Assembly (NCBI GenBank): GCA_046296495.1
Contig: JBKBLB010000002.1
Span: forward strand, 22,590-86,589
Source: Bacteroidia bacterium
GTDB taxonomy: Bacteria; Bacteroidota; Bacteroidia; UKL13-3
Length of the DNA: 64,000 nucleotides
Direction of reading: 5' to 3'
Below the pieces are notes generated by a model that did not search any database, was not told where the DNA came from, and saw only the letters and a list, made by a program, of their open reading frames with translations. Within the stretch, counting starts at the first letter, position 1, and every line of letters begins with the position of its first letter. Positions 7,818 to 21,126 of the stretch are shown in pieces. Made by a program: the position numbers and the translations under genes.

Positions 7818-9287
7818 TTATTTATTGTCTAATGTTTCTTTAAGCAATTTATTGGCAATTTTAGGGTCAGCTTTTCCTTTACTTTTTTTCATTACTTCGC
7901 CCATAAATAATCCTATTAAAGATTGTTTACCGTTTTTGTATTCGGTAACTTTTTCCGGGAAAGCATCAATAGCTTCATCAATCCATTGTTGTAATTGGCT
8001 TAAATCGCTTTCCTGTATCAAATTTAATTTTTCGGCAATTTGTGCTGCCGATAAATGATGCTCTTGCAGCATAACAGGAAAAAGTTTTTGCGAAGCAGCC
8101 GAATGGCTTATTTTCCCCGAATCTATTAAATCTATTATTTCAGCAATTTTAGCAGGTTGTAATTCAAAATCTTTAATATCAATTGCCTGCTCATTTAAAT
8201 AGCCTTTAATATTTACCATAAGCCAATTAGCAGCAGCTTTAATATTTGATGTGTGTTTTAAAATGCTTTCAAAATATTCGGCTATATCTTTGTTTTCGGT
8301 AAGTACTCCGGTATCGTATTCACTAAGTTTGTAAAGTTGAGTAAATTTTTGGTGTAACTCTTTAGGTAAAGCAGGCATTTGTGCTTTTACCCTTTCAATA
8401 TGCTCGTTTGTAATGTGTATGGGTGGTAAATCAGGTTCAGGAAAATATCTGTAATCGCTTGCACCTTCTTTTGTTCGCATGCTTATGGTAATGCCTTTTA
8501 ATGCATCAAAAGTTCTTGTTTCCATTACTATACTTTCACCATTAAGTATGGCTTGTGTTTGTCTGTGTATTTCGTAATCAATGGCTTTTTGAACATTTCG
8601 CATCGAGTTCATGTTTTTAACTTCTACTTTGGTGCCAAACTTTTTACTGCCTTTGGGTCTTACCGAAATGTTTGCATCGCAACGAAGGCTGCCTTCTTCC
8701 ATGTTGCCGTCACATATATCGAGGTAGCGAACCAATTTTCTAATTTCAGTTAAGTATTGGTAGGCTTCTTCACCACTTCTTAAATCAGGTTCAGAAACAA
8801 TTTCAATAAGTGGAACTCCTGCACGGTTCAAATCAATCAACGAGTCATAAACATCCTGATCGTGCATGCTTTTACCGGCATCTTCTTCCATGTGAATGCG
8901 GGTAAGTCCGATTTTTTTGGATTTATTATCCGAAGTTTTAATTTCTATAAATCCACCGGTACATATTGGTGTTTTATCTTGCGTTATCTGATAACCTTTT
9001 GGTAAATCGGCATAAAAGTAGTTTTTACGTGCATAATACTGAAATGGGGCAATATTGCAATTACAGGCAATGCCCATTCTAATAGCAAAATTTATTACCT
9101 CTTTATTGTGTTTTGGTAAAGTTCCCGGGTGGCCTAAACTTATGGGGCTAACCATGCTGTTTGGGTCAGCACCATAATCATACATTTCGCTGCTGTATGC
9201 TTTACTCTTTGTATTCATTTGTGCATGAACCTCAAGCCCAATAACAGCTTCAAATTCATTTGCAATCTCTGTATTTGGTTCAGACAT
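7818..9287 (-). CDS. gatB: Asp-tRNA(Asn)/Glu-tRNA(Gln) amidotransferase subunit B
   Basis: 489 aa; EAVIGLEVHAQMNTKSK at the N-terminus and a C-terminal GatB/YqeY domain. Confidence 0.9.
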   Translation of the reverse strand: MSEPNTEIANEFEAVIGLEVHAQMNTKSKAYSSEMYDYGADPNSMVSPISLGHPGTLPKHNKEVINFAIRMGIACNCNIAPFQYYARKNYFYADLPKGYQITQDKTPICTGGFIEIKTSDNKSKKIGLTRIHMEEDAGKSMHDQDVYDSLIDLNRAGVPLIEIVSEPDLRSGEEAYQYLTEIRKLVRYLDICDGNMEEGSLRCDANISVRPKGSKKFGTKVEVKNMNSMRNVQKAIDYEIHRQTQAILNGESIVMETRTFDALKGITISMRTKEGASDYRYFPEPDLPPIHITNEHIERVKAQMPALPKELHQKFTQLYKLSEYDTGVLTENKDIAEYFESILKHTSNIKAAANWLMVNIKGYLNEQAIDIKDFELQPAKIAEIIDLIDSGKISHSAASQKLFPVMLQEHHLSAAQIAEKLNLIQESDLSQLQQWIDEAIDAFPEKVTEYKNGKQSLIGLFMGEVMKKSKGKADPKIANKLLKETLDNK

Positions 9288-9367
9288 ATATAAAATGCAA
9301 TAATAACTTCAAATCTAAAATTTATTTAGATACCTAAATTTAAAACAAATAAATTACGATTAATGTG

Positions 9368-12300
9368 TTAATGGGCAATTGTAATTTTTTGTTTGCTTGA
9401 ACCAAAAGGTGTTTGAATTTCTAAAAAGTAAATACCATTTTTCAAATCGCTTACATCAATATTGTTTTGGTTGGATTGTTTAATCAGTTTTCCTGATATA
9501 TCAAACATCAGCAGGTTATTTACTGTAAAATCTCCCGCTACGTTTATAACAGTATTAGCCGGATTTGGATATATAACAAAAGTATTATTAGATAATTTTT
9601 TATCTAAACCAATTGTTAAAGTTCCGGCAACCAATGGCATATTATAGGTTTGCGTTGACACCCTTTCGTAATTACCAAGTTTTGCCACCACACGCCAGCG
9701 GGTTTGAAGGGTTTGTCCATTTACCAAATTTAATCTGTTATAAAGTTGCTGAAATGATATAAAATAAGATGTATCAGTTCCATTTAAGTTGCTTAAATCA
9801 TTTATTTTTGGATTAGAAAAATTGCCTGTACTTAAATCAATCTGAAATCTGTATGCTACAGTACCAGGGTAGTTTTTACTTTTTTTAGCCTCATTCCACG
9901 AAAAAGCAAGTGCATTGTTTGTGTCTCCTGCAATGGTTTGAGATACATTGTCAGGTGGAGAAAGCAAAGAAAATGGCCTTAAAGTATCGCCATCGGGGTT
10001 AGCAATAATATCTGTCTCAAAACGAGGCAATATTTGATACCCGTTAAAAGCAAATGGTGCATTAAAACTACTGCTTGTTTGAGAGCCAAAACCAATAATA
10101 TCAAAATATGTAACAGTAGGAACGGGCTTTCCTGCTAATTCACTGGTATTTGGTACTCTAATTAAAATGGTATCATTTAATGGAGATAAAGCATTTACTA
10201 CACTATTATTTGTTGGCCATATTCCATTTGTAGGAGGGGTTATAAATTTTAAATTCTTTATTAGTATTAATTTATTTTCTGCTTCTTCATTTGGTTTCAA
10301 AAATTCAATTGGTAGCTTTAAGTTATTACCGCTTGAAATAAATCTTAATGAATCAGGATTATTGAGAACAGCCAAACCTCTGTTTGATTGAACAGTACCA
10401 CTAATCATAATGCTATCTCCGTTTTTAACGGTATATCCAAAGTTTTGTGTGTTACTTAATACAGTTATTCCACCGGTTGCATCCATTAGTACAAACTGTA
10501 ATCCAATAGTTCTTTGATTTGGTTCGTACACAATACCGTAAAAAGTAACTCTTACATTATTAGAGTCGGGTAAACCGGTTGTTGTGTTTGTTTTAACACA
10601 TGGCCCAATAGGATAGTGTGGTGGCAAACCCAAACCAGAACCTGATGCATAATTAGGTAACGAATAAACACTGTCAATATCGTTTACAACCTGTATTACA
10701 AAATAGTATTTTTTAAATGGAACAAGACCTGAAAGGTTAACAAAATTTGTATCGCCTTTAAATACGCAACGTGCAGCAGTATCAGCAAAAAATCTGGTAC
10801 CGTTTCCGCTTACATTGGCATTAGCATTATATCGGGCAGGCGATAATGTTGCCGAACCCGGTAAAATGGGTGCATCAGGTTTAGCAAATACCAAGGTAGT
10901 GTATCTTGCGTTTACGTAACCTGTAGGTTTAATCCAACTAACGCGAGCAGTTGTAGAAGTTAGTGGAGAAACAATTATATTGGTAACACTATCAAGCGGA
11001 GCGGAAAGTGTGGTTGCATTGCCGGTTGCACCAACTGAGTATGCAGAATCAGCATTTCTTACAACGTAAGCTAAAATATGATATGTTGTTGAACCATTAA
11101 GTCCATTTACTGTTACCGATAAACTATCACTATTCATAACACATCTTGCAAGCGAATCATTCTCGAAACGGCTTACAGCAAGTGTAAAATTATTATTTGC
11201 AATATATTTATTGGGGTTTGCTAATGGATTGCCCTGCACAACAGATGTTGAGGGTTTAACAAAAACCAAGGTAGTCATTGTATTAGCATCATAAGAGCTG
11301 TTTCTTGTCATATTAATTCTAATACTGTTTGAACCTAGTGTTGATGTTGTAAGAGATGATAAAGGCAGGGGAGGAACAACTCCGCTAGTTAATGTAATTG
11401 TGCTGCTAATTCCGGTTGAGTAGGATGTATCAAATTCTCTTACTGATACAACAAAAAAGCTATAAGATGTAAGGGGTTGTAAACCGTCAACATTTACTGA
11501 TGTTAAATCGCCTTTGTAAACGCACTTTGCGGCAGTATCGTTTGGCCATGCCGATCCTAATCCAAAAGTTGTATTGGCATTAAAAATGTTTAAACTAAAT
11601 TTATTATTTGAGCCAATATTTACGGTTGAGCCTTGTTTAGCAAAAACCAATGTAGTAAAGCTATCATTTACATAAAGAGAAGGTTTTTGCCAACTAGCTG
11701 TAAGGGTATTGGCAGACGTTTGGTTCAAAATAAAATTTAACACATTTTGAGGTGGGGATGTTCCTACGCTGTAAAAAACTATTGTTAAACTATCTATTGA
11801 TAGTCCATCATCGCTTCCTGTAACATCAACATCGCTCCATCTAATATATAATGTATCACCGGGTGCTAAAAGTAAATTATCAATTTGTTGATTATATCTA
11901 ATTTGGTTAGCTGTATCGTTGCCAACAAGTGCTCTTGCCGTTCCTCCCAAAACTTTGCTAATTAAGTTTAAGTTACTTTGTTTAATCCAGGTTCCTCTTG
12001 CCGGATTTAACCCAGCGGTGTTAACACCATAAAAAAACTCACTCGAATCAATAGAAGTTCGGCCTCCGGCACGCCATTGTTCCATGGTAAAAGCCAATTG
12101 AACGGCAGTAATAAAACCAGTAGTAGCATTTACAAAATAGCCACCAATATTGCTTCTTAAAGCACCGCTTGCCAAACTTCCCATTGCGCGGTCAGTATTA
12201 TTTGCAACACCAAAACTGTATGTATCACCGGTATTTGCAGAGCCTGGATTTGCTGTATAAATGGCATTAGCTGCGTTTCCTGTTTCAAAAAATAAATAAC

Positions 12301-12504: not shown

Positions 12505-12537
12505 AAAAAAGCTGACCTTTAGAGTCAGCTTTTTGTT
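12505..12537 (-). terminator. Rho-independent terminator for the MaoC-like gene
   Basis: aaaaGCTGAC-ctttaga-GTCAGCtttt, with a T-run on the - strand (aaacaaaaaa on +). Confidence 0.55.
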
Positions 12538-12540
12538 TAT

Positions 12541-12957
12541 TTACCAAACGTATTGTTTTTTATTCATTAGCAATGCTTCACCGGTAATTGTTTCAGCACC
12601 GCTTTCCACATCAATTACTTTTGTTTCATACAACACCCTGTTTTTTTCTGGGAAAATTTCTTTAACTGTTATTACAGCTTCATATTTGGTTTCAACAAAC
12701 ATTGGTTTTAAAAAAGTTGTATTTTGTTTCATGTAAATATGACCATCTGCGTAAAGCAAAGTGCCGAATATTTTTGTAAAAACACTTGCACTAAAATGTC
12801 CATGAATAATGCATCTTCCGAATATACTTGCTTTTCCGGCTTCTTCGTTTACATGCAATGGGTTGGTGTCTCCGCTTATTTGTGCATATAGGTTTACTTG
12901 CTCTTGAGTGTAACTAAATTGATGTTTAAAAACATCTCCAATTTTTGGTGCGTTCAT
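12541..12957 (-). CDS. MaoC-like (R)-specific enoyl-CoA hydratase / hotdog-fold dehydratase (PhaJ-like)
   Basis: 138 aa; the DTNPLHVNEEAGKASIFGRCIIHG motif is typical of MaoC dehydratases. Confidence 0.8.
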   Translation of the reverse strand: MNAPKIGDVFKHQFSYTQEQVNLYAQISGDTNPLHVNEEAGKASIFGRCIIHGHFSASVFTKIFGTLLYADGHIYMKQNTTFLKPMFVETKYEAVITVKEIFPEKNRVLYETKVIDVESGAETITGEALLMNKKQYVW

Positions 12958-13110
12958 TTTTTGTTAATTTTTTTGTGCGAAATTGAAATTTTATGACGGA
13001 AAAACAAGATAAAATTATTTTTACTGATGCGAAAAAATCACTTTACAGTTTTTTAACAATTGATTTTTGTTAGAATTATCAAGGGTTTTGGCGAATTAAT
13101 AATTAAATAA

Positions 13111-13152
13111 TGCAAAGGTGTTTGGAAATATAAAAATATTGCTACCTTTGCA
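13111..13152 (+). promoter_or_regulatory. 9-bp inverted repeat TGCAAAGGT-N24-ACCTTTGCA with a nested AATAT-N4-ATATT palindrome, ~58 nt upstream of the PhaE-like gene
   Basis: Read directly from the sequence, in the 252-nt divergent intergenic region between the MaoC-like and PhaE-like genes. Confidence 0.3.
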
Positions 13153-13209
13153 GCCGCTTTTGGAGAGGTAAATTCTTTGAAAGTTTAAAACACAAAAATA
13201 AAAACCTTT

Positions 13210-14514
13210 ATGGAAAACAAAAACATCTTTACAAATTTTGCTGAAATGCAAAAACAAGCAATTGAAACTTTTACCACTGCTGCCGAAAACATGCAAAAAA
13301 CTTTTATGAACAACAATGTAAATGTTGATTCGGAGTTTTTTAAAAAATGGTACGATAGCCAAATGGAATGGTTCAACAAAAATAATAGTGGAGAAAATTC
13401 AGCAGCTAATTTCTTTAACAACTGGATGAATGCTCAAATGAATGTGGCTAAACAATGGATGGAAATGGGCTCAAACATGATGAACAATATGAAAGGCAAC
13501 AGCATGAATGCTGATATGAACCATGCTTACAACAACATGATGTCGTTGTTTAACAATTGGATGAGCACCATGACGAATACATATAATGAAATGTTGAAAA
13601 ACATGAGTAATGGTCAGGGTAAATCGGCATTTGAAGGTATGTTTAACAATGCAGAAATGTACATGAAAGCATTTGAATTGTGGATGCCATTAATGAAAGC
13701 CATGAACGATAAAACTTATACACCTGAAAGTTTTAAAAATATGTTCAACGCTGAAATGTTTAAAGATATGATGGATAAAATGTTTGGCATGCAACCTGAA
13801 ATGATGCAAAACATGATGAAGCAAATGATGGATAACATGAAAATGAACATGGGTGGCATGATGGACAACAATAAAATGATGTTTGACAACATGAAAAATA
13901 TGATGGAAAACATGATGCCAAACGGACAGCATATTACATCAAACATGTTGGAAATGTATAATAACTGGTACAACACCATGCACAATGCATCAGCTCCAAT
14001 AATGAAGTTAATGCCAAATGGTAGTGCCAAGCATAATATGGAAACAATGCAGGAAATTGCAAACCAAATGATGGTTTACAATTTAAAAAATTCTCAATTG
14101 CAATACATCATGTACAACACCGGTTTAAAAGCTACCGAAGAAATGGCTAATGAAATGTATGCAAAAATGAGAAATGGTGAAAGCATTGAAAACTTCATTA
14201 AAGTATATCAAAATTGGTTAAACAAAATTGATACTCATTTTGTAAAATTATTCGAAACTGAAGAATATTCTAAAATGATGGCTGAAACAAGCGCCATGCA
14301 GTTGAGACTAAAAAAACAAATTGAAGGTATGATGGAAAAAGCAATGAGCCATCTTCCATTAATTAACAGAACTGAAATGGATGAATTGTATAAAACCATT
14401 CACGAACTAAAAAGCAGAATTCATTCGTTAGAAAAACAATTAGATAACGAAGAAATAGTTGAAGAGGTTAAAGAACCAAAAGCAACATCTAAAAAAACTG
14501 CTAAAACAGCATAG
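13210..14514 (+). CDS. PhaE-like protein (class III PHA synthase subunit E homolog) with an extreme Met/Asn-rich low-complexity expansion
   Basis: 434 aa. The N-terminus (FFKKWYDSQMEWF) and C-terminal ~120 aa align with Allochromatium-type PhaE; the C-terminal match reads SIENFIKVYQNWL...EYSKMM...NRTEMDELYKTIHELKSRIHSLEKQL. The central ~250 aa are ~20% Met, with motifs such as (F/Y)NNWM, NMM and MMDNMKMNMGGMM. There is no signal peptide. Confidence 0.55.
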   Translation: MENKNIFTNFAEMQKQAIETFTTAAENMQKTFMNNNVNVDSEFFKKWYDSQMEWFNKNNSGENSAANFFNNWMNAQMNVAKQWMEMGSNMMNNMKGNSMNADMNHAYNNMMSLFNNWMSTMTNTYNEMLKNMSNGQGKSAFEGMFNNAEMYMKAFELWMPLMKAMNDKTYTPESFKNMFNAEMFKDMMDKMFGMQPEMMQNMMKQMMDNMKMNMGGMMDNNKMMFDNMKNMMENMMPNGQHITSNMLEMYNNWYNTMHNASAPIMKLMPNGSAKHNMETMQEIANQMMVYNLKNSQLQYIMYNTGLKATEEMANEMYAKMRNGESIENFIKVYQNWLNKIDTHFVKLFETEEYSKMMAETSAMQLRLKKQIEGMMEKAMSHLPLINRTEMDELYKTIHELKSRIHSLEKQLDNEEIVEEVKEPKATSKKTAKTA

Positions 14515-14542
14515 TTTATAAAATAATAAAACTTACTAACAG

Positions 14543-14590
14543 CCGCAGACCCGCTTGTTTTTCATAGTTGGGTTTGCGGTTTGTTTTTTT
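14543..14590 (+). terminator. Rho-independent terminator after the PhaE-like gene
   Basis: CCGCAGACCC-N17-GGGTTTGCGG (one G·U pair) followed by tttgttttttttt. Confidence 0.5.
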
Positions 14591-14604
14591 TATGCCTTTG
14601 GTAA

Positions 14605-16320
14605 TTGATTAAAATGAGCATTTTTGTAACAATGAATTATTCTGGAAAACTTAGTTTACTTTTTATTTCTTATTTATTTTTAACAAACCTAAATGCTCAA
14701 AACAATTATATACCGCTTGGAACATTAAGTGAACATTTCCTCGACAGGTTTGAAATTTTAAGTGGTAAACTTCAACAAGAGTATCATACAACTTTAAAAA
14801 GCTACCGAAGATATGCAATAGCCGGTTTTGTTGATAGTTTTCAGGTTGGTTTAATACCTTTGAGTAAAAGAGATTATTTTAATCTTGATTATTTACAGAA
14901 CGATAATTTTGAGTTTTCAAAAAGTGAACAAACTTTTTCAAAATATAAAATATCAAAAAACTTTTACGAAAGAAAAGCCGCCATGTTTAGCGTACAAATA
15001 CCTGATTTTAATTTGGTGGTAAATCCGGTTTTGTACTATGAATTTAATACTGATAAATCAATTGGAGATTACAGCTTAATTAATAATCGTGGGGTTGAAA
15101 TAAGAGGTAATATTACCCGTAAAATTGGTTTTTATACTCAGGTTAGCGATGAAATTTTAATGCCTACCAGTTGGGTTGAGGAAAACTATAGGCAATTTGG
15201 TTATCACCCCGGAGTAAATTTTAGAAAAGGTTATGGTAATTATTACGGATATTTTTTAGCTAACGGTTATGTTACAGCAGCGCTAAATAAATACATGGAT
15301 TTGCAATTTGGTCATTACAGAAATTTTATTGGTGATGGTTACAGAAGTTTTATACTTGGCAATCAGGTACCAGAGTATATGAATATGCGATTAAACACCC
15401 GAATTTGGAAAATGAATTATACAAATATTTGGGCAGAGTTAAGAGAATTTCCGATTACCAATACAACAGGAAGAGAAACACAGCCAAGAAAATACACAGC
15501 AACCCATCACCTTAGTGTTAATGTTACAAAAAATTTAAATGTAGGAATTTTTGAAACCATTATTTTTCAAAGAGACAGCGGTCATAATGTTTCTGGTTTT
15601 GATTTAAATTATTTAAATCCGGTAATATTTTACAAAGCACTTGAGAATGGCTTAAATAGCGTAGATAAAGCCATTATTGGTATGAATTATAAATATAATT
15701 TCTTAAAGCATTTTTCATTATACGGTCAAGTTGTATTAAGTGAGTTTATTTTAGAAAATATAGTTGAACGCAATGGCTGGTGGGGTAATAAATATGCATT
15801 TCAAACAGGGTTAAAATATATAGATATATTTGGCATCAAAAACCTTGACGGGCAATCAGAAATTAACTATTGCAGGCCATATATGTACACTTCGTACAGC
15901 AATCAGCAAACGTTTACACATTTCAGGCAACCCATGGCACATCCGCTAGGTGCAAATTTTAAAGAGTACATTGGAATTTTAAGGTATCAACCAATAAATA
16001 GAATGTTTATTACTGCTAAACTAATTGTTGCCCGATATGGAAACGACACAAACAATAGTAATTGGGGCAGAAACATAACAATTGGTTATTCTCAAAATCC
16101 GGGATTAAATGAGTTTGGAAACTATATATCTCAAGGAGTATTAACAAACCTTTATTTTGGCGAACTTTTATTTAGTTACATGCTTAAACACAATTTATTT
16201 ATTGATACACGATTTGGTTACAGAAAAACAACATCGGCTTTACCTATATTTGAAAGTGATGCACCGTACTTTGCTTTTGGAGTAAGACTAAATATTGCAC
16301 AAAGGTTTTACGATTTTTAA
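14605..16320 (+). CDS. Putative outer-membrane beta-barrel protein (possibly Wzi-like); function unknown
   Basis: 571 aa with a signal peptide (likely start at MNYSGKLSLLFISYLFLTNLNAQ, nt 14632). It is Tyr/Asn/Gly-rich and ends in ...RFYDF, the terminal aromatic typical of OM beta-barrels. Confidence 0.5.
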   Translation: MIKMSIFVTMNYSGKLSLLFISYLFLTNLNAQNNYIPLGTLSEHFLDRFEILSGKLQQEYHTTLKSYRRYAIAGFVDSFQVGLIPLSKRDYFNLDYLQNDNFEFSKSEQTFSKYKISKNFYERKAAMFSVQIPDFNLVVNPVLYYEFNTDKSIGDYSLINNRGVEIRGNITRKIGFYTQVSDEILMPTSWVEENYRQFGYHPGVNFRKGYGNYYGYFLANGYVTAALNKYMDLQFGHYRNFIGDGYRSFILGNQVPEYMNMRLNTRIWKMNYTNIWAELREFPITNTTGRETQPRKYTATHHLSVNVTKNLNVGIFETIIFQRDSGHNVSGFDLNYLNPVIFYKALENGLNSVDKAIIGMNYKYNFLKHFSLYGQVVLSEFILENIVERNGWWGNKYAFQTGLKYIDIFGIKNLDGQSEINYCRPYMYTSYSNQQTFTHFRQPMAHPLGANFKEYIGILRYQPINRMFITAKLIVARYGNDTNNSNWGRNITIGYSQNPGLNEFGNYISQGVLTNLYFGELLFSYMLKHNLFIDTRFGYRKTTSALPIFESDAPYFAFGVRLNIAQRFYDF

Positions 16321-16342: not shown

Positions 16343-17638
16343 ATGGAATTTAAAGATAATTATACAACAGCAGAAGAAGCAATAAGCTTAATTAAATCGG
16401 GGCAAAGGGTTTACTTGCATGGAAGTGCTGCAACACCAATTTGTTTAATAAATGAACTTATTAAACAAAAAGACAGATTAAAAGATGTTGAACTGGTAAA
16501 TATTACTTTACAAGGAACCAATTTAAACAAACCAGAACTTGAAGGACATTTTTATATTAATTCCTTATTTGTATCAGAAAGTAATAGAGAGGCTGTAAAT
16601 TCAAGCATTGGAGCTTATGTACCGGTTTTTTTAAGCGAAATTCCGGGGTTATTTAAAAAAAACATACTTCCAGTAGATGTTGCCATTATTCAGGTATCAC
16701 CACCTGATAAGCATGGTTATTGCTCATTAGGAACTTCTGTAGATATTGCAAAAGCAGCTTTTAACAGTGCAAAACAAGTAATTGCTCAGGTAAATCCTAA
16801 AATGCCTCGTGTACATGGCGATGCTTTTATACCATTTAATAAAATTACAAAAGCTGTTTGGGTTGAAGACGATTTGCCTGAAGTAAGTTTTAGCAGTAAA
16901 GCTAACGAAGCAACTGATAAAATCGGTAAAATAATAGCCGAATTAATTGAAGATGGTTCAACACTACAAATGGGTATTGGCACCATTCCTGATTCTGTTT
17001 TAAAAAACTTAACAAACCATAAAGATTTGGGAATACATACAGAAATGTTTTCTGATGGTGCAATTCCGCTTATTAAAAACGGAACGATTAATAACAGCAA
17101 AAAGAAAATTGTAAAAGGTTACAATGTTACATCGTTTTTAATTGGTTCACGAGAATTATATGATTTTGTTGACGACAATCCAATAGTAAAAGCACTTGAT
17201 ATTGATTTTGTTAATGATCCGGTTGTTATAAAACAAAACCCTAAAGTAGTTGCCATAAACAGTGCTATTGAAATAGATTTTACCGGTCAGGTTTGTGCAG
17301 ATTCAATAGGCACTTATCAATACTCTGGAATTGGAGGGCAAATGGATTTTATTAGAGGTGCTTCACTTTCTGAGGGTGGAAAACCAATAATTGCTTTGCC
17401 AAGTTGCACCGGTAAAGGTGTTTCGAGAATTGTTCCTACGCTAAAGCAAGGTGCAGGAGTTGTTACAACCAGAGGTCATGTACATTGGGTAGTTACTGAG
17501 TTTGGTGCTGTAAACTTATATGGTTTAAATCTTCAACAAAGGGCAAAAGCACTAATTAGTTTAGCTCATCCGCAATATAGAGAATACTTAGAAAAATCTT
17601 ATTTCGAGCGTTTCGTAAAACAAAGTCATAATAAATAA
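16343..17638 (+). CDS. Acetyl-CoA hydrolase/transferase family protein (4-hydroxybutyrate CoA-transferase-like)
   Basis: 431 aa with the typical family architecture, including LHGSAATP in the N-terminal domain and GIGGQMDF and GGKPIIALPS in the C-terminal domain. Confidence 0.8.
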   Translation: MEFKDNYTTAEEAISLIKSGQRVYLHGSAATPICLINELIKQKDRLKDVELVNITLQGTNLNKPELEGHFYINSLFVSESNREAVNSSIGAYVPVFLSEIPGLFKKNILPVDVAIIQVSPPDKHGYCSLGTSVDIAKAAFNSAKQVIAQVNPKMPRVHGDAFIPFNKITKAVWVEDDLPEVSFSSKANEATDKIGKIIAELIEDGSTLQMGIGTIPDSVLKNLTNHKDLGIHTEMFSDGAIPLIKNGTINNSKKKIVKGYNVTSFLIGSRELYDFVDDNPIVKALDIDFVNDPVVIKQNPKVVAINSAIEIDFTGQVCADSIGTYQYSGIGGQMDFIRGASLSEGGKPIIALPSCTGKGVSRIVPTLKQGAGVVTTRGHVHWVVTEFGAVNLYGLNLQQRAKALISLAHPQYREYLEKSYFERFVKQSHNK

Positions 17639-18842: not shown

Positions 18843-19083
18843 TACTGAGGAAATTTTGTTTTAAAGGGTTGCGAATATAGTAGTATTTAACTCAAATTCA
18901 AAACATATTAATAAAATTTGATAACTTTAATTTAATAAGTGATTTATAAATTGTTAATTATCAATCTAATGAATAATAATTAAATTGAGTTTATTTTGGT
19001 AACTGTTTTCTGTTTTTATTTAAATTATTTACGAATGATATATTTAGCAACTTTCAGAAACGTGAAAAATCAAATTTCAATAA

Positions 19084-21126
19084 ATGAATAAACTTAATAT
19101 TCTATTATTTTTAATTATACCAATATTTTATTCATTCAGTAAATATAAGTTATCAGATAAAGATAAATTAAATATTGATTTTGAAAAAAGTTTAAATTTA
19201 ACTGCACAATGCTTACATAAATTATATGCTTTTGACACAATAAACACTTTAAAGCTATTTGATAAAATAATAGAATACGATGCTTTAAAACAAAATTATA
19301 TTACAAATTGGTTTGTTTATTACACTAAAGCCGCAATTCAAAGTGATTTATTTTTTAATACCGACTCAGGAATATTTTACGCTGATAAAGCATTAGATTT
19401 AGCATTAAAAAATTATGACAGAGAGTTGATGATTAGAAGCTATATAAAGAAAATTGATTTATTGGAAAGAATAAAAGATGATGAAATGATTTTAGAATAT
19501 TCGTATAGAATAAGTGATTTGCTAAAAGAAAATAAAGGTGAAATTAACCATATAGATATTTTTCATTATTTTAACAGAATTGGAACTGTTTATTTTAGAG
19601 AAGGATATACAGAACTTGCATTATACAATTTTAAAATAGCACTACTAAAAGTAATTAATTCATCAAAAATTTATTCAGATTACGAATATTGGATTCAAAA
19701 CATATTAAACAATATTGGGATGTGTTATGAAGAGCAAGGAAATTACCAAAAAGCAGAAAAATATTATAAACTGGCAATCATAAATTCAAAAAAATCTAAA
19801 AATATTGAAAGGGCTTTAGGCGTAAATTACGCTAGCCTTGCCGCTTTATACCACAAACAAAAAAAGTATGCAGATGCCGAAAAATTCTACCGAAAAGCAT
19901 TAAATTTTGCTTTGAAATTTGAAAACAGAGAAATAGAGCATGGAATAGGTTCATTATTGCGTTTTTCGGATTTGTTGATTGAATTAAATAGGTTGAATGA
20001 GGCAGATTCTGCTTTATCAAACGCTTTTGTTTTAATTAATAATTATAATGTTAAACATCATCTTAAAGTTTATAATTATACAAAATCAAAAATTGAAAGT
20101 AAAAAAGGTAATTACAAGTTATCAAATAATTATTTGATAAATTATATTAAGTTGTTGGATGAAGAAAATATAGAAAAAAGAAAATTTTCTGCAGCTAAGA
20201 TATTAATGACTAAAAATCTGAGAAACATTGAAAATGAAAACAGAAATCTAGAGGCTAAACTTGCCATAGAAAAATCAACATCTTTTGTTTACAGAATATT
20301 TAGCATAACGGTTTTTATATTCTTTTTGATAATATTTATCATTTTGTACAGGCAACATCAAAACAATAAAAAACTTGCAGAGTTAAATTATCAAATAGAA
20401 GAATCAAATACCAATTTAAAACAAATAAACAGAAAGCTTGAAAGCTTAAATAAGCAAAAAACATATTTAATTAATACAGTAGCACATGATTTAAGAAATC
20501 CAATAAGAAATATAAATGTATTATGTGATTTTATAGATAAAGTAAATTTAAATAAAGAGGATTTAGATGTATTAAAAATGATTAAAACCAGCAGTGTAAA
20601 TGCTTCAATTATTGTTGAAGATATTTTGGATCAAGCATTAATTGAAAATGCAACCATTAAACTTACTAAAAAGAAAATTGACTTAGCTGTTGTTGTAAAA
20701 GAAACAATTGACTTGGTTTATTATATGTCTCGAAACAAAAATATTGATATAAATTTTGAGCATGTAGGTGATTTTTGGGTTTTAGTTGATGAAAGTCGAA
20801 TAAGCAGGGTAATACAGAATTTATTAACCAATGCAATTAAATATAGCGAAGCAAATTCGAAAGTATATATTGAATTAAAAAAAGTGGATAAGCATGTTTT
20901 GCTAACTGTTAAAGATTATGGTGTAGGAATTCCTCGTGAGAAATTAACAAAAATATTTGAACCATTTACAAAATATAATTCTACAGGAACAGCATCCGAA
21001 AGATCTTATGGTTTGGGTCTTTCAATAACCAAAAAAATTGTTGAATTGCACAATGGTAAAATTGATGTTGAAAGTGAACCGGGAAAAGGAGCTAAATTTA
21101 TGGTTACCATACCTATAACAACATAA
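19084..21126 (+). CDS. TPR-repeat-containing sensor histidine kinase (orphan)
   Basis: 680 aa. An N-terminal signal/TM is followed by multiple TPR-like repeats, a TM helix (IFSITVFIFFLIIFIILY), an H-box (VAHDLRNPIRN) and a HATPase_c domain (NLLTNAIKYS, DYGVGI, GLGLSITKKIV). Confidence 0.8.
   Translation: MNKLNILLFLIIPIFYSFSKYKLSDKDKLNIDFEKSLNLTAQCLHKLYAFDTINTLKLFDKIIEYDALKQNYITNWFVYYTKAAIQSDLFFNTDSGIFYADKALDLALKNYDRELMIRSYIKKIDLLERIKDDEMILEYSYRISDLLKENKGEINHIDIFHYFNRIGTVYFREGYTELALYNFKIALLKVINSSKIYSDYEYWIQNILNNIGMCYEEQGNYQKAEKYYKLAIINSKKSKNIERALGVNYASLAALYHKQKKYADAEKFYRKALNFALKFENREIEHGIGSLLRFSDLLIELNRLNEADSALSNAFVLINNYNVKHHLKVYNYTKSKIESKKGNYKLSNNYLINYIKLLDEENIEKRKFSAAKILMTKNLRNIENENRNLEAKLAIEKSTSFVYRIFSITVFIFFLIIFIILYRQHQNNKKLAELNYQIEESNTNLKQINRKLESLNKQKTYLINTVAHDLRNPIRNINVLCDFIDKVNLNKEDLDVLKMIKTSSVNASIIVEDILDQALIENATIKLTKKKIDLAVVVKETIDLVYYMSRNKNIDINFEHVGDFWVLVDESRISRVIQNLLTNAIKYSEANSKVYIELKKVDKHVLLTVKDYGVGIPREKLTKIFEPFTKYNSTGTASERSYGLGLSITKKIVELHNGKIDVESEPGKGAKFMVTIPITT

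Follow-up and report, generated by a model that had tools for sequence, protein, structure and literature searches.

Class III polyhydroxyalkanoate (PHA) synthases are built from a PhaE and a PhaC subunit. These bacterial proteins are about 40 kDa each, both are required for synthesis, and class III PhaC needs PhaE (PMC3191746). Hydrophobic and amphiphilic residues of bacterial PhaE are described as serving granule association (PMC3191746). Described PhaE proteins, such as those of Allochromatium vinosum and Synechocystis, belong to the families PF09712 and TIGR01834, while phasins (PhaP; PF05597, TIGR01837) form another group of granule-associated proteins that are helical and amphipathic. 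Here, a methionine-rich PhaE from a Bacteroidia bacterium is compared with these systems. It is encoded in a 64,000-nucleotide stretch of contig JBKBLB010000002.1 (assembly GCA_046296495.1, positions 22,590 to 86,589), termed the window below, in which the gene, phaE, occupies positions 13210 to 14514 of the forward strand. The protein is likely to be the PhaE of a two-subunit class III PHA synthase in freshwater Bacteroidia of low guanine-plus-cytosine (GC) content, a soluble, all-helical cytoplasmic protein whose composition came about by residue replacement within an ordinary PhaE domain. The grounds for this reading are family membership, colinearity with other PhaE proteins, the replacement pattern, helical periodicity, purifying selection, and synteny.

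Composition and family membership

The gene and its parts are arranged as follows.

13210–14514, forward strand: phaE coding sequence, 434 amino acids, assigned as the non-catalytic subunit of class III PHA synthase (Pfam, homologues, hhalign)
13210–13395, forward strand: N-terminal extension, residues 1–62, not present in PhaE proteins of 340–370 residues (the hhalign alignment begins at residue 63)
13396–14457, forward strand: PhaE domain proper, residues 63–416 (hhalign, 354 columns; PF09712)
13390–14109, forward strand: methionine-dense core, residues 61–300, 22.5% methionine (composition; helical spacing of methionines)
13528–13626, forward strand: internal repeat copy 1, residues 107–139, YNNMMSLFNNWMSTMTNTYNEMLKNMSNGQGKS (hhalign of sub-alignments)
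13936–14034, forward strand: internal repeat copy 2, residues 243–275, TSNMLEMYNNWYNTMHNASAPIMKLMPNGSAKH (hhalign of sub-alignments)
13796–13923, forward strand: degenerate tandem repeats with unit lengths of 12 nt and 21 nt, inside residues 181–240
14368–14445, forward strand: C-terminal long helix, residues 387–412, RTEMDELYKTIHELKSRIHSLEKQLD, the best-conserved segment (family alignment, AlphaFold2, hhalign)

The domain architecture of the window protein is that of PhaE. PF09712 (PHA_synth_III_E) matches it with 77.3 bits against a gathering cutoff of 25.7, and the match runs unbroken from residue 82 to 407, corresponding to profile positions 1–310 of 311. When the window family was aligned by hhalign with 12 PhaE proteins of 320–396 residues, 354 columns were paired (probability 100, E 4e-65), with window residues 63–416 set against residues 1–339 of a 339-residue PhaE without a large gap. 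The cluster-mates of the reference canonical-length PhaE are called “class III PhaE subunit” by the Joint Genome Institute (JGI). These results, together with the adjacency of most relatives to phaC, uphold an earlier suggestion that the protein is a PhaE homologue. The PF09712 coordinates and the colinearity also mean that the methionine-rich core is the PhaE domain itself, and not an insertion into it as had been proposed. When 1.84 billion representatives were searched exhaustively with a profile, 1218 relatives emerged at E ≤ 1e-3, and the PhaE proteins of 340–370 residues are among them.

Judged by these alignments, the sole extra part relative to PhaE of canonical length is the 62-residue N-terminal extension. 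It holds the invariant motif FKKWY..QM..F (F44, K45, K46, W47, Y48, Q51, M52, and F55), and its residues 42–54 are weakly similar to residues 67–79 (hhalign probability 33%). At the other end of the protein, the helix at residues 387–412 is common to canonical-length PhaE, with which it shares the motif (E/S)EMD(E/D)LYKT(I/V)(Y/H)ELKK.(V/I)..LEK. This region also bears a weak resemblance to phasins and BMFP (BMFP, E 9e-4; Phasin, E 0.18; TIGR01837, E 0.0055). Both phasin models match residues 352–409 only and remain below their cutoffs (PF05597, 12.3 vs 28.8 bits; TIGR01837, 16.8 vs 94.7 bits). Unlike phasins, the window PhaE is 2–4 times longer than is typical for them, and its relatives share operons with PhaC.

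What sets the protein apart from canonical PhaE is its amino acid composition. The open reading frame (ORF) runs from ATG to TAG and encodes 70 methionine (Met; 16.1%), 63 asparagine (Asn; 14.5%), 8 His, and 0 Cys residues, in agreement with the roughly 70 Met given in a preliminary description of this DNA. The motifs quoted there are also present, as the translation contains FFNNWM, LFNNWM, YNNWY, and MMDNMKMNMGGMM. Of the hydrophobic residues in the protein, 45% are Met. Across the 42 long ORFs of the window, Met makes up 2.3%, and the runner-up ORF reaches 3.7%. Within PhaE, Met accounts for 8% of residues 1–60, 54 of 240 (22.5%) in residues 61–300, and 23 of 60 (38%) at the peak in residues 181–240, while the final 44 residues are Met-free. 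The tandem array located in this peak codes for units of 4 and 7 residues, MMxN and MMDNMKK among them. The two copies of the internal repeat align over 33 columns with an hhalign probability of 95.9 (E 5.5e-9). Overall, the protein contains 22 MxxxM and 15 MxxM motifs and only 2 of the form (M/H)xx(M/H)xx(M/H).

This composition is shared by a whole family of Bacteroidia proteins, and is not a peculiarity of one sequence. Searching about 5.8 billion proteins brought up 218 homologues that match the window PhaE in length. The 115 that are full-length contain 10–20% Met (median 14.5%) and 9–16.5% Asn, compared to 3.5–5% Met in most homologues of canonical length. Over a wider homologue set, Met content is continuous from 0.8% to 20%. 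Many of the Met positions are conserved. Among the 115 homologues, columns with at least 80% Met account for 27 of the 70 query Met, and the count grows to 44 when columns with at least 50% Met are admitted; among the closest 40 relatives of the window PhaE, 50 columns are at least 70% Met. Compared with its two closest relatives (75–76% identity), phaE has a proportion of nonsynonymous differences (pN) of 0.14–0.15 and a saturated proportion of synonymous differences (pS) of 0.71–0.75, which gives a pN/pS of about 0.20. The gene is under purifying selection. The core, with a pN of 0.16–0.19 compared to 0.105–0.14 in the flanks, evolves about 1.5 times faster.

Two trivial origins of the Met-richness were considered and rejected. 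A frameshift or other artefact, raised earlier as an alternative, is ruled out by the 218 homologues of the same length, the position-specific conservation of Met, and the low pN/pS. Bias toward AT is ruled out as the cause because Met content shows no correlation with GC content (rho = −0.17, p = 0.15) and 10–11% Met is kept at 50–54% GC. The cluster-mates of PhaE are poorer in Met (PhaC, 5.9%; MaoC, 3.7%). The PhaC partners at loci L001–L058 (see below) are themselves fairly Met-rich at 5–7%, compared to about 2.3% in the window ORFs and 3.5% in a PhaC of Ignavibacteria (L067).

The NCBI record MFN4082198.1 (422 residues, 196-kb contig) is identical to the window protein from Met13 on and is already named PhaE. 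The real start of phaE is probably at 13210, because M1 and E2 are conserved in at least 90% of 56 homologues. The upstream sequence MENKN.F..FA.MQKQ is likewise kept in the PhaE family, and the NCBI start would be 12 codons too short (13210–13245). On the reverse strand, a His-rich ORF at 13690–13932 and an Ile/Phe-rich ORF at 13716–14030 (80 and 104 residues) overlap phaE. These are non-genes, a CAT mirror image of the ATG/AAC-rich codons, and the His-rich antisense frames had correctly been set aside from the outset.

Residue replacement and helical faces

Columns that are occupied by Met in this clade hold mainly other hydrophobic residues in Met-poor PhaE. At the 50 columns of at least 70% Met, 25 full-length homologues that stay below 5% Met carry L, F, M, I, V, A, Y, or W in about 66% of cases (Leu 13%, Phe 13%, Met 12%, Ile 7%, Val 7%, Ala 7%, Tyr 4%, and Trp 4%). 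Across 246 homologues, the total of M, F, L, I, V, W, and Y is steady at 0.32–0.35, while the share of hydrophobic residues other than Met drops with increasing Met, from 0.285 to 0.18 (r = −0.91, slope −0.75). When pairs of at least 65% identity are compared, the residues that trade places with Met are Leu (30%), Phe (13%), Ile (12.5%), Val (10%), Ala (9%), and Thr (8%). The Asn columns of the clade correspond to mixed polar residues in Asn-poor homologues.

The spacing of Met follows the period of a helix. In the core, Met–Met pairs are overrepresented at i+4 (z = +2.7) and at i+8 (z = +2.9), underrepresented at i+2 (z = −2.9), and not enriched at i+3. Of 13 predicted helices, 10 have their hydrophobic residues gathered on a single face (p < 0.05). 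AlphaFold2 (AF2) predicts an all-helical window PhaE with 15 helices, as in class III PhaE generally, at a mean predicted local distance difference test score (pLDDT) of 52 that is best at residues 250–380. A Met-poor PhaE of 339 residues is predicted with a mean pLDDT of 58 and equally low values in its N-terminal two-thirds, so the low confidence is a property of PhaE generally and not of Met-richness. Among solved structures, the sequence search and Foldseek with the AF2 model, whose confidence is too low for comparing folds, gave chance helical matches only, and the structure search returned no solved structure of PhaE. The maximum Kyte–Doolittle hydropathy over 19 residues is 0.24 and the grand average of hydropathy is −0.76. 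By hydropathy, the protein has no signal peptide or transmembrane segment, although no dedicated signal-peptide predictor was run.

The stable hydrophobic total and the helical periodicity of Met suggest that Met forms the hydrophobic faces, and Asn the polar faces, of amphipathic helices. The simplest reading is therefore a reduced-alphabet amphipathic helical protein, in which Met is used as the hydrophobic and Asn as the polar residue. In the mechanism proposed here, the window PhaE would bind and activate a catalytic PhaC encoded on another contig. Flexible thioether side chains would line the hydrophobic face of the amphipathic helices, and these Met-lined faces may contact PhaC, the polyester, or both, and may tether the synthase to the hydrophobic surface of the growing granule. 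Hydroxyacyl-coenzyme A (CoA) monomers would be delivered by the PhaJ-like hydratase and the 4-hydroxybutyrate CoA-transferase-like enzyme described in the next section. Any benefit of Met over Leu in such faces is one that we infer.

The closest functional analogy is the M domain of SRP54/Ffh, whose Met-rich amphipathic helices would present a flexible hydrophobic surface. In the “methionine bristles” idea, this surface lets the SRP54 M domain accommodate varied hydrophobic ligands. The ligands bound by this Met-rich domain are signal sequences (PMC2288941), whereas the ligand of the window PhaE would be a polyester surface or PhaC. No kinship of sequence or fold was found between the two.

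Gene neighborhood and the probable phaC partner

The following features flank phaE in the window.

12541–12957, reverse strand: gene for a PhaJ-like (R)-specific enoyl-CoA hydratase, MaoC domain, 138 amino acids, divergent from phaE (PF01575; 1IQ6)
13143–13161, forward strand: conserved intergenic block TACCTTTGCAGCCGCTTTT, about 60 nt 5′ of the phaE start (comparison with L005, L006, and L007)
14538–14591, forward strand: intrinsic terminator, a long GC-rich hairpin followed by a U run (RNA folding)
16343–17638, forward strand: gene for a 4-hydroxybutyrate CoA-transferase-like protein, 431 amino acids, two genes 3′ of phaE (family match and solved structures)

In total, 70 phaE loci were fetched, of which 63 remained after restriction to one genome per species; they are labelled here with L-numbers. 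By gene order and neighbors, the 63 loci look like Bacteroidota, and a few bear implausible taxon labels. The record titles of many loci indicate lake or pond samples. Complete chromosomes among them are CP012155.1 (Bacteroidetes bacterium UKL13-3) and OZ257140.1. Contigs with the PhaJ-like gene and phaE that are named Bifidobacterium, Vulcanococcus, Comamonas, or Methylacidiphilales (L011, L028, L029, L035, L040, L041, L043, and L054), most of which carry phaC, are probably mislabelled metagenome-assembled genomes (MAGs).

As in class III systems, most of these phaE genes stand directly upstream of phaC. In 45 of the 63 loci (49 of the 70 fetched), a co-oriented phaC encoding about 350 residues follows 100–700 bp downstream, and a MaoC gene lies upstream, mostly in divergent orientation. 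Two of these PhaC proteins score above the class III cutoff of TIGR01836 (412 and 391 vs 365 bits). The PhaJ-like gene is found about 0.2–2.2 kb from phaE in nearly all loci, usually divergent and at about 0.7 kb or less, and is the most constant neighbor of this phaE family. Its pairing with phaE outlasts that of phaE with phaC at L005–L007, L028/L029/L033/L035, L059–L065, and L069. In one clade (L002–L004), the PhaJ-like gene is co-oriented with phaE and separated from it by a ParD/ParE toxin-antitoxin pair at about 9030–9570. At some loci, as in L001 at 12522–13394, phaC is followed by an alpha/beta hydrolase gene with a partial match to NF050089, a model of intracellular short-chain PHA depolymerase (105 bits vs a cutoff of 300), and the product may be a depolymerase completing the cluster.

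The window departs from this arrangement, as phaE stands apart from phaC and is followed by its own terminator. The divergent PhaJ-like gene as constant neighbor is a further difference from the described PhaE systems. No phaC was found in the 64-kb window, either by tblastn with two Bacteroidia PhaC proteins or by an NCBIfam scan of its ten ORFs of 335–431 residues, as had been noted before. Neighborhoods that lack phaC but mostly retain the MaoC–phaE pair occur in three clades: that of the window itself (L005–L007), L028/L029/L033/L035, and a Chitinophagaceae-like clade whose PhaE has about 500 residues. The adjacency of phaE and phaC has been lost independently in at least three clades. The constraint on phaE is similar in both arrangements, with a pN/pS of 0.10–0.21 in clades with unlinked phaC and 0.229 ± 0.036 in linked ones. 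A class III PhaC, MFN4083529.1 (named by NCBI, 74.7-kb contig), carries the same organism label as MFN4082198.1 and is 1331 accession numbers away from it. A 90% cluster-mate of this PhaC belongs to the JGI sample that also contains the PhaE locus of the sister species, and it stands without an adjacent phaE. In the window's clade, phaE and phaC are therefore probably unlinked rather than lost, with PhaC on another contig of the same MAG. The gene is probably not without a partner, and accession proximity under a shared organism label is the basis for placing the two in the same genome.

Upstream of phaE, the product of the PhaJ-like gene has as its best solved relative 1IQ6, an (R)-specific enoyl-CoA hydratase (E 2e-13). 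The block at 13143–13161 (TACCTTTGCA(G/C)CCGCTTTT) has one variable base among the window and L005–L007, while the remaining spacer between phaJ and phaE diverges. It contains TAccTTTG, which we take to be a fit to the Bacteroidetes −7 promoter consensus TAnnTTTG, and its CCGCTTTT part could be an operator. Downstream, the terminator hairpin has a dG of −23.7 kcal/mol (z = −5.4), and 0 of 200 shuffles were as stable. Because this strong terminator lies directly 3′, phaE is probably monocistronic here. The terminator came from folding; scans for sigma-70 promoters and simple terminators were uninformative, and Rfam and tRNA scans found nothing relevant near phaE.

Further downstream, a 571-residue ORF at 14605–16320 (forward strand) has a signal-peptide-like N-terminus and a C-terminal ...RFYDF and resembles an outer-membrane beta-barrel; neither Pfam nor NCBIfam gave a match. 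It is found at the same place in L005–L007 with 73–75% identity, between phaE and the CoA-transferase gene, where phaC stands in other clades. The CoA-transferase-like product matches 4-hydroxybutyrate CoA-transferase structures with E 1.6e-140, and it is a possible supplier of PHA monomers. Its gene is tied to phaE only in the window's clade. Elsewhere in the window, GC content falls to 0.24 at 19001–21000 (window mean about 0.33), over a gene for a histidine kinase with tetratricopeptide repeats at 19084–21126.

Alternative explanations and biological meaning

Several points weigh against the reading of the window protein as a class III PhaE remodeled by residue replacement. Of the two PhaE models, only PF09712 recognizes it; the score with TIGR01834 is 52.8 bits, under the curated cutoff of 154.95. 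All ten other PhaE-family proteins tried, including some of 339–369 residues from a cluster that JGI names PhaE, likewise score under this cutoff (29–97 bits), and TIGR01834 is narrower than the PhaE family. In the window's clade phaC is not adjacent, and L005–L007 share the phaC-less gene order. The placement of PhaC in the same MAG follows from close accession numbering and not from a reading of the assembly. At the AF2 confidence reached for both proteins, Met faces that are buried, in contact with PhaC, or exposed to the granule are not distinguishable. Moreover, Met content shifts fast between close relatives (11.1% vs 16.1% at 75% identity), which fits near-neutral exchange as well as adaptation. 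Finally, no experimental work on members of the clade was found in the literature.

The fast shifts in Met content are also what would be expected from near-neutral drift, in which any flexible residue, hydrophobic or polar, is acceptable to the helices, slippage in ATG-rich repeats helps, and Met is merely hydrophobic. The continuum of Met content over homologues, the degenerate 12-nt/21-nt array that forms the densest Met segment, and the faster evolution of the core agree with drift, but the many columns conserved as Met among the 115 homologues and the closest 40 relatives, the independence from GC content, and the pN/pS of about 0.2 do not. In addition, with only one codon and a high metabolic cost, Met would not be expected to gain from a mutational push. 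Drift is unlikely, with a modest chance of being right. A second explanation makes PhaE redox-responsive, its Met helices acting as a reversible oxidation switch or a sacrificial sink: sulfoxide would make the faces polar and free or dissolve the scaffold, which would couple PHA synthesis or the coating of granules to oxidative stress, and methionine sulfoxide reductase (Msr) would reset it. This explanation draws on the very high and conserved Met density confined to PhaE, on the essentially Cys-free family in which Met is essentially the sole redox-changeable sulphur residue, and on the resemblance of the Met/Asn-rich, poorly predicted region to a low-complexity domain. In yeast Pbp1 (ataxin-2) and in TDP-43, low-complexity domains rich in Met are documented redox sensors, in which reversible Met oxidation controls self-assembly (PMC8394241). 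However, these are non-homologous eukaryotic RNA-binding proteins, and the window region, for which helices are predicted, can be aligned residue for residue with an ordinary domain. Homologues with 1–5% Met keep the length, the domain, and, where seen, the neighbors, which makes Met dispensable for the function of the family. There is also no consistently linked msrA/msrB or other redox gene, with thioredoxin-like genes several genes away at some loci. Redox-responsiveness is accordingly unlikely, with a small chance of being right, and a full granule switch, in which oxidation of about 50 core Met would detach or dissolve the PhaE–PhaC scaffold and Msr would restore it, is quite unlikely. 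If true, such a switch would tie carbon storage to oxidative stress and be a bacterial counterpart of the Pbp1/TDP-43 sensors.

A role for PhaE without PhaC in the window's clade, as a phasin-like granule coat or scaffold or as the partner of the PhaJ-like enzyme alone, is suggested by the three clades in which the MaoC–phaE pair persists unlinked from phaC, by the strong terminator 3′ of phaE, and by the weak phasin-like matches of the C-terminal helix. It is distinctly improbable, given that a class III PhaC is probably present in the same MAG and is found in the sample of a sister species, that phaE is constrained as in linked clades, and that class III PhaC requires PhaE (PMC3191746). The preliminary description had raised another function, the binding or buffering of Cu(I) or Ag(I) through Met thioethers, as in CusF, PcoC/CopC, Ctr1, and the Met-rich insert of CueO. 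The window PhaE does resemble these proteins in its high Met content and its strings of MxxxM and MxxM. The Mets-motif proteins CusF, PcoC/CopC, Ctr1, and CueO function in the periplasm or extracellularly, whereas the window PhaE is cytoplasmic, lacks a signal peptide or membrane segment, and is not homologous to them. The depletion of MxM (i+2) and the lack of enrichment at i+3 are the periodicity of a helix face, His and Cys are few or absent (8 and 0), the (M/H)xx(M/H)xx(M/H) motif occurs twice, and the Met columns swap to Leu, Phe, Ile, and Val in homologues. No copper-binding family in Pfam or NCBIfam matches the protein at E ≤ 1, and no copper genes occur among the neighbors of the phaE loci inspected, where the conserved neighbors are PHA genes. 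Metal binding is very improbable.

The Met-rich PhaE is a compositional variant of a known family; it represents no new system and is not a module for metal binding. The PhaE assignment is already in the NCBI annotation; for the Met-richness, and for PHA synthesis in this lineage, no description was found in the literature. For the scanning of genomes, the lesson is that extreme Met content alone is no sign of metal binding. PhaE is the least understood component of class III PHA synthases, and a large series of PhaE proteins whose Met content spans 1% to 20%, while length, domain, and, where looked at, neighborhood stay the same, is a natural experiment on hydrophobic faces, side-chain flexibility, and polyester binding. 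Many freshwater Bacteroidia, almost all of them known here as MAGs, hold a complete class III PHA synthase together with a dedicated PhaJ-like gene, which bears on carbon storage in lakes.

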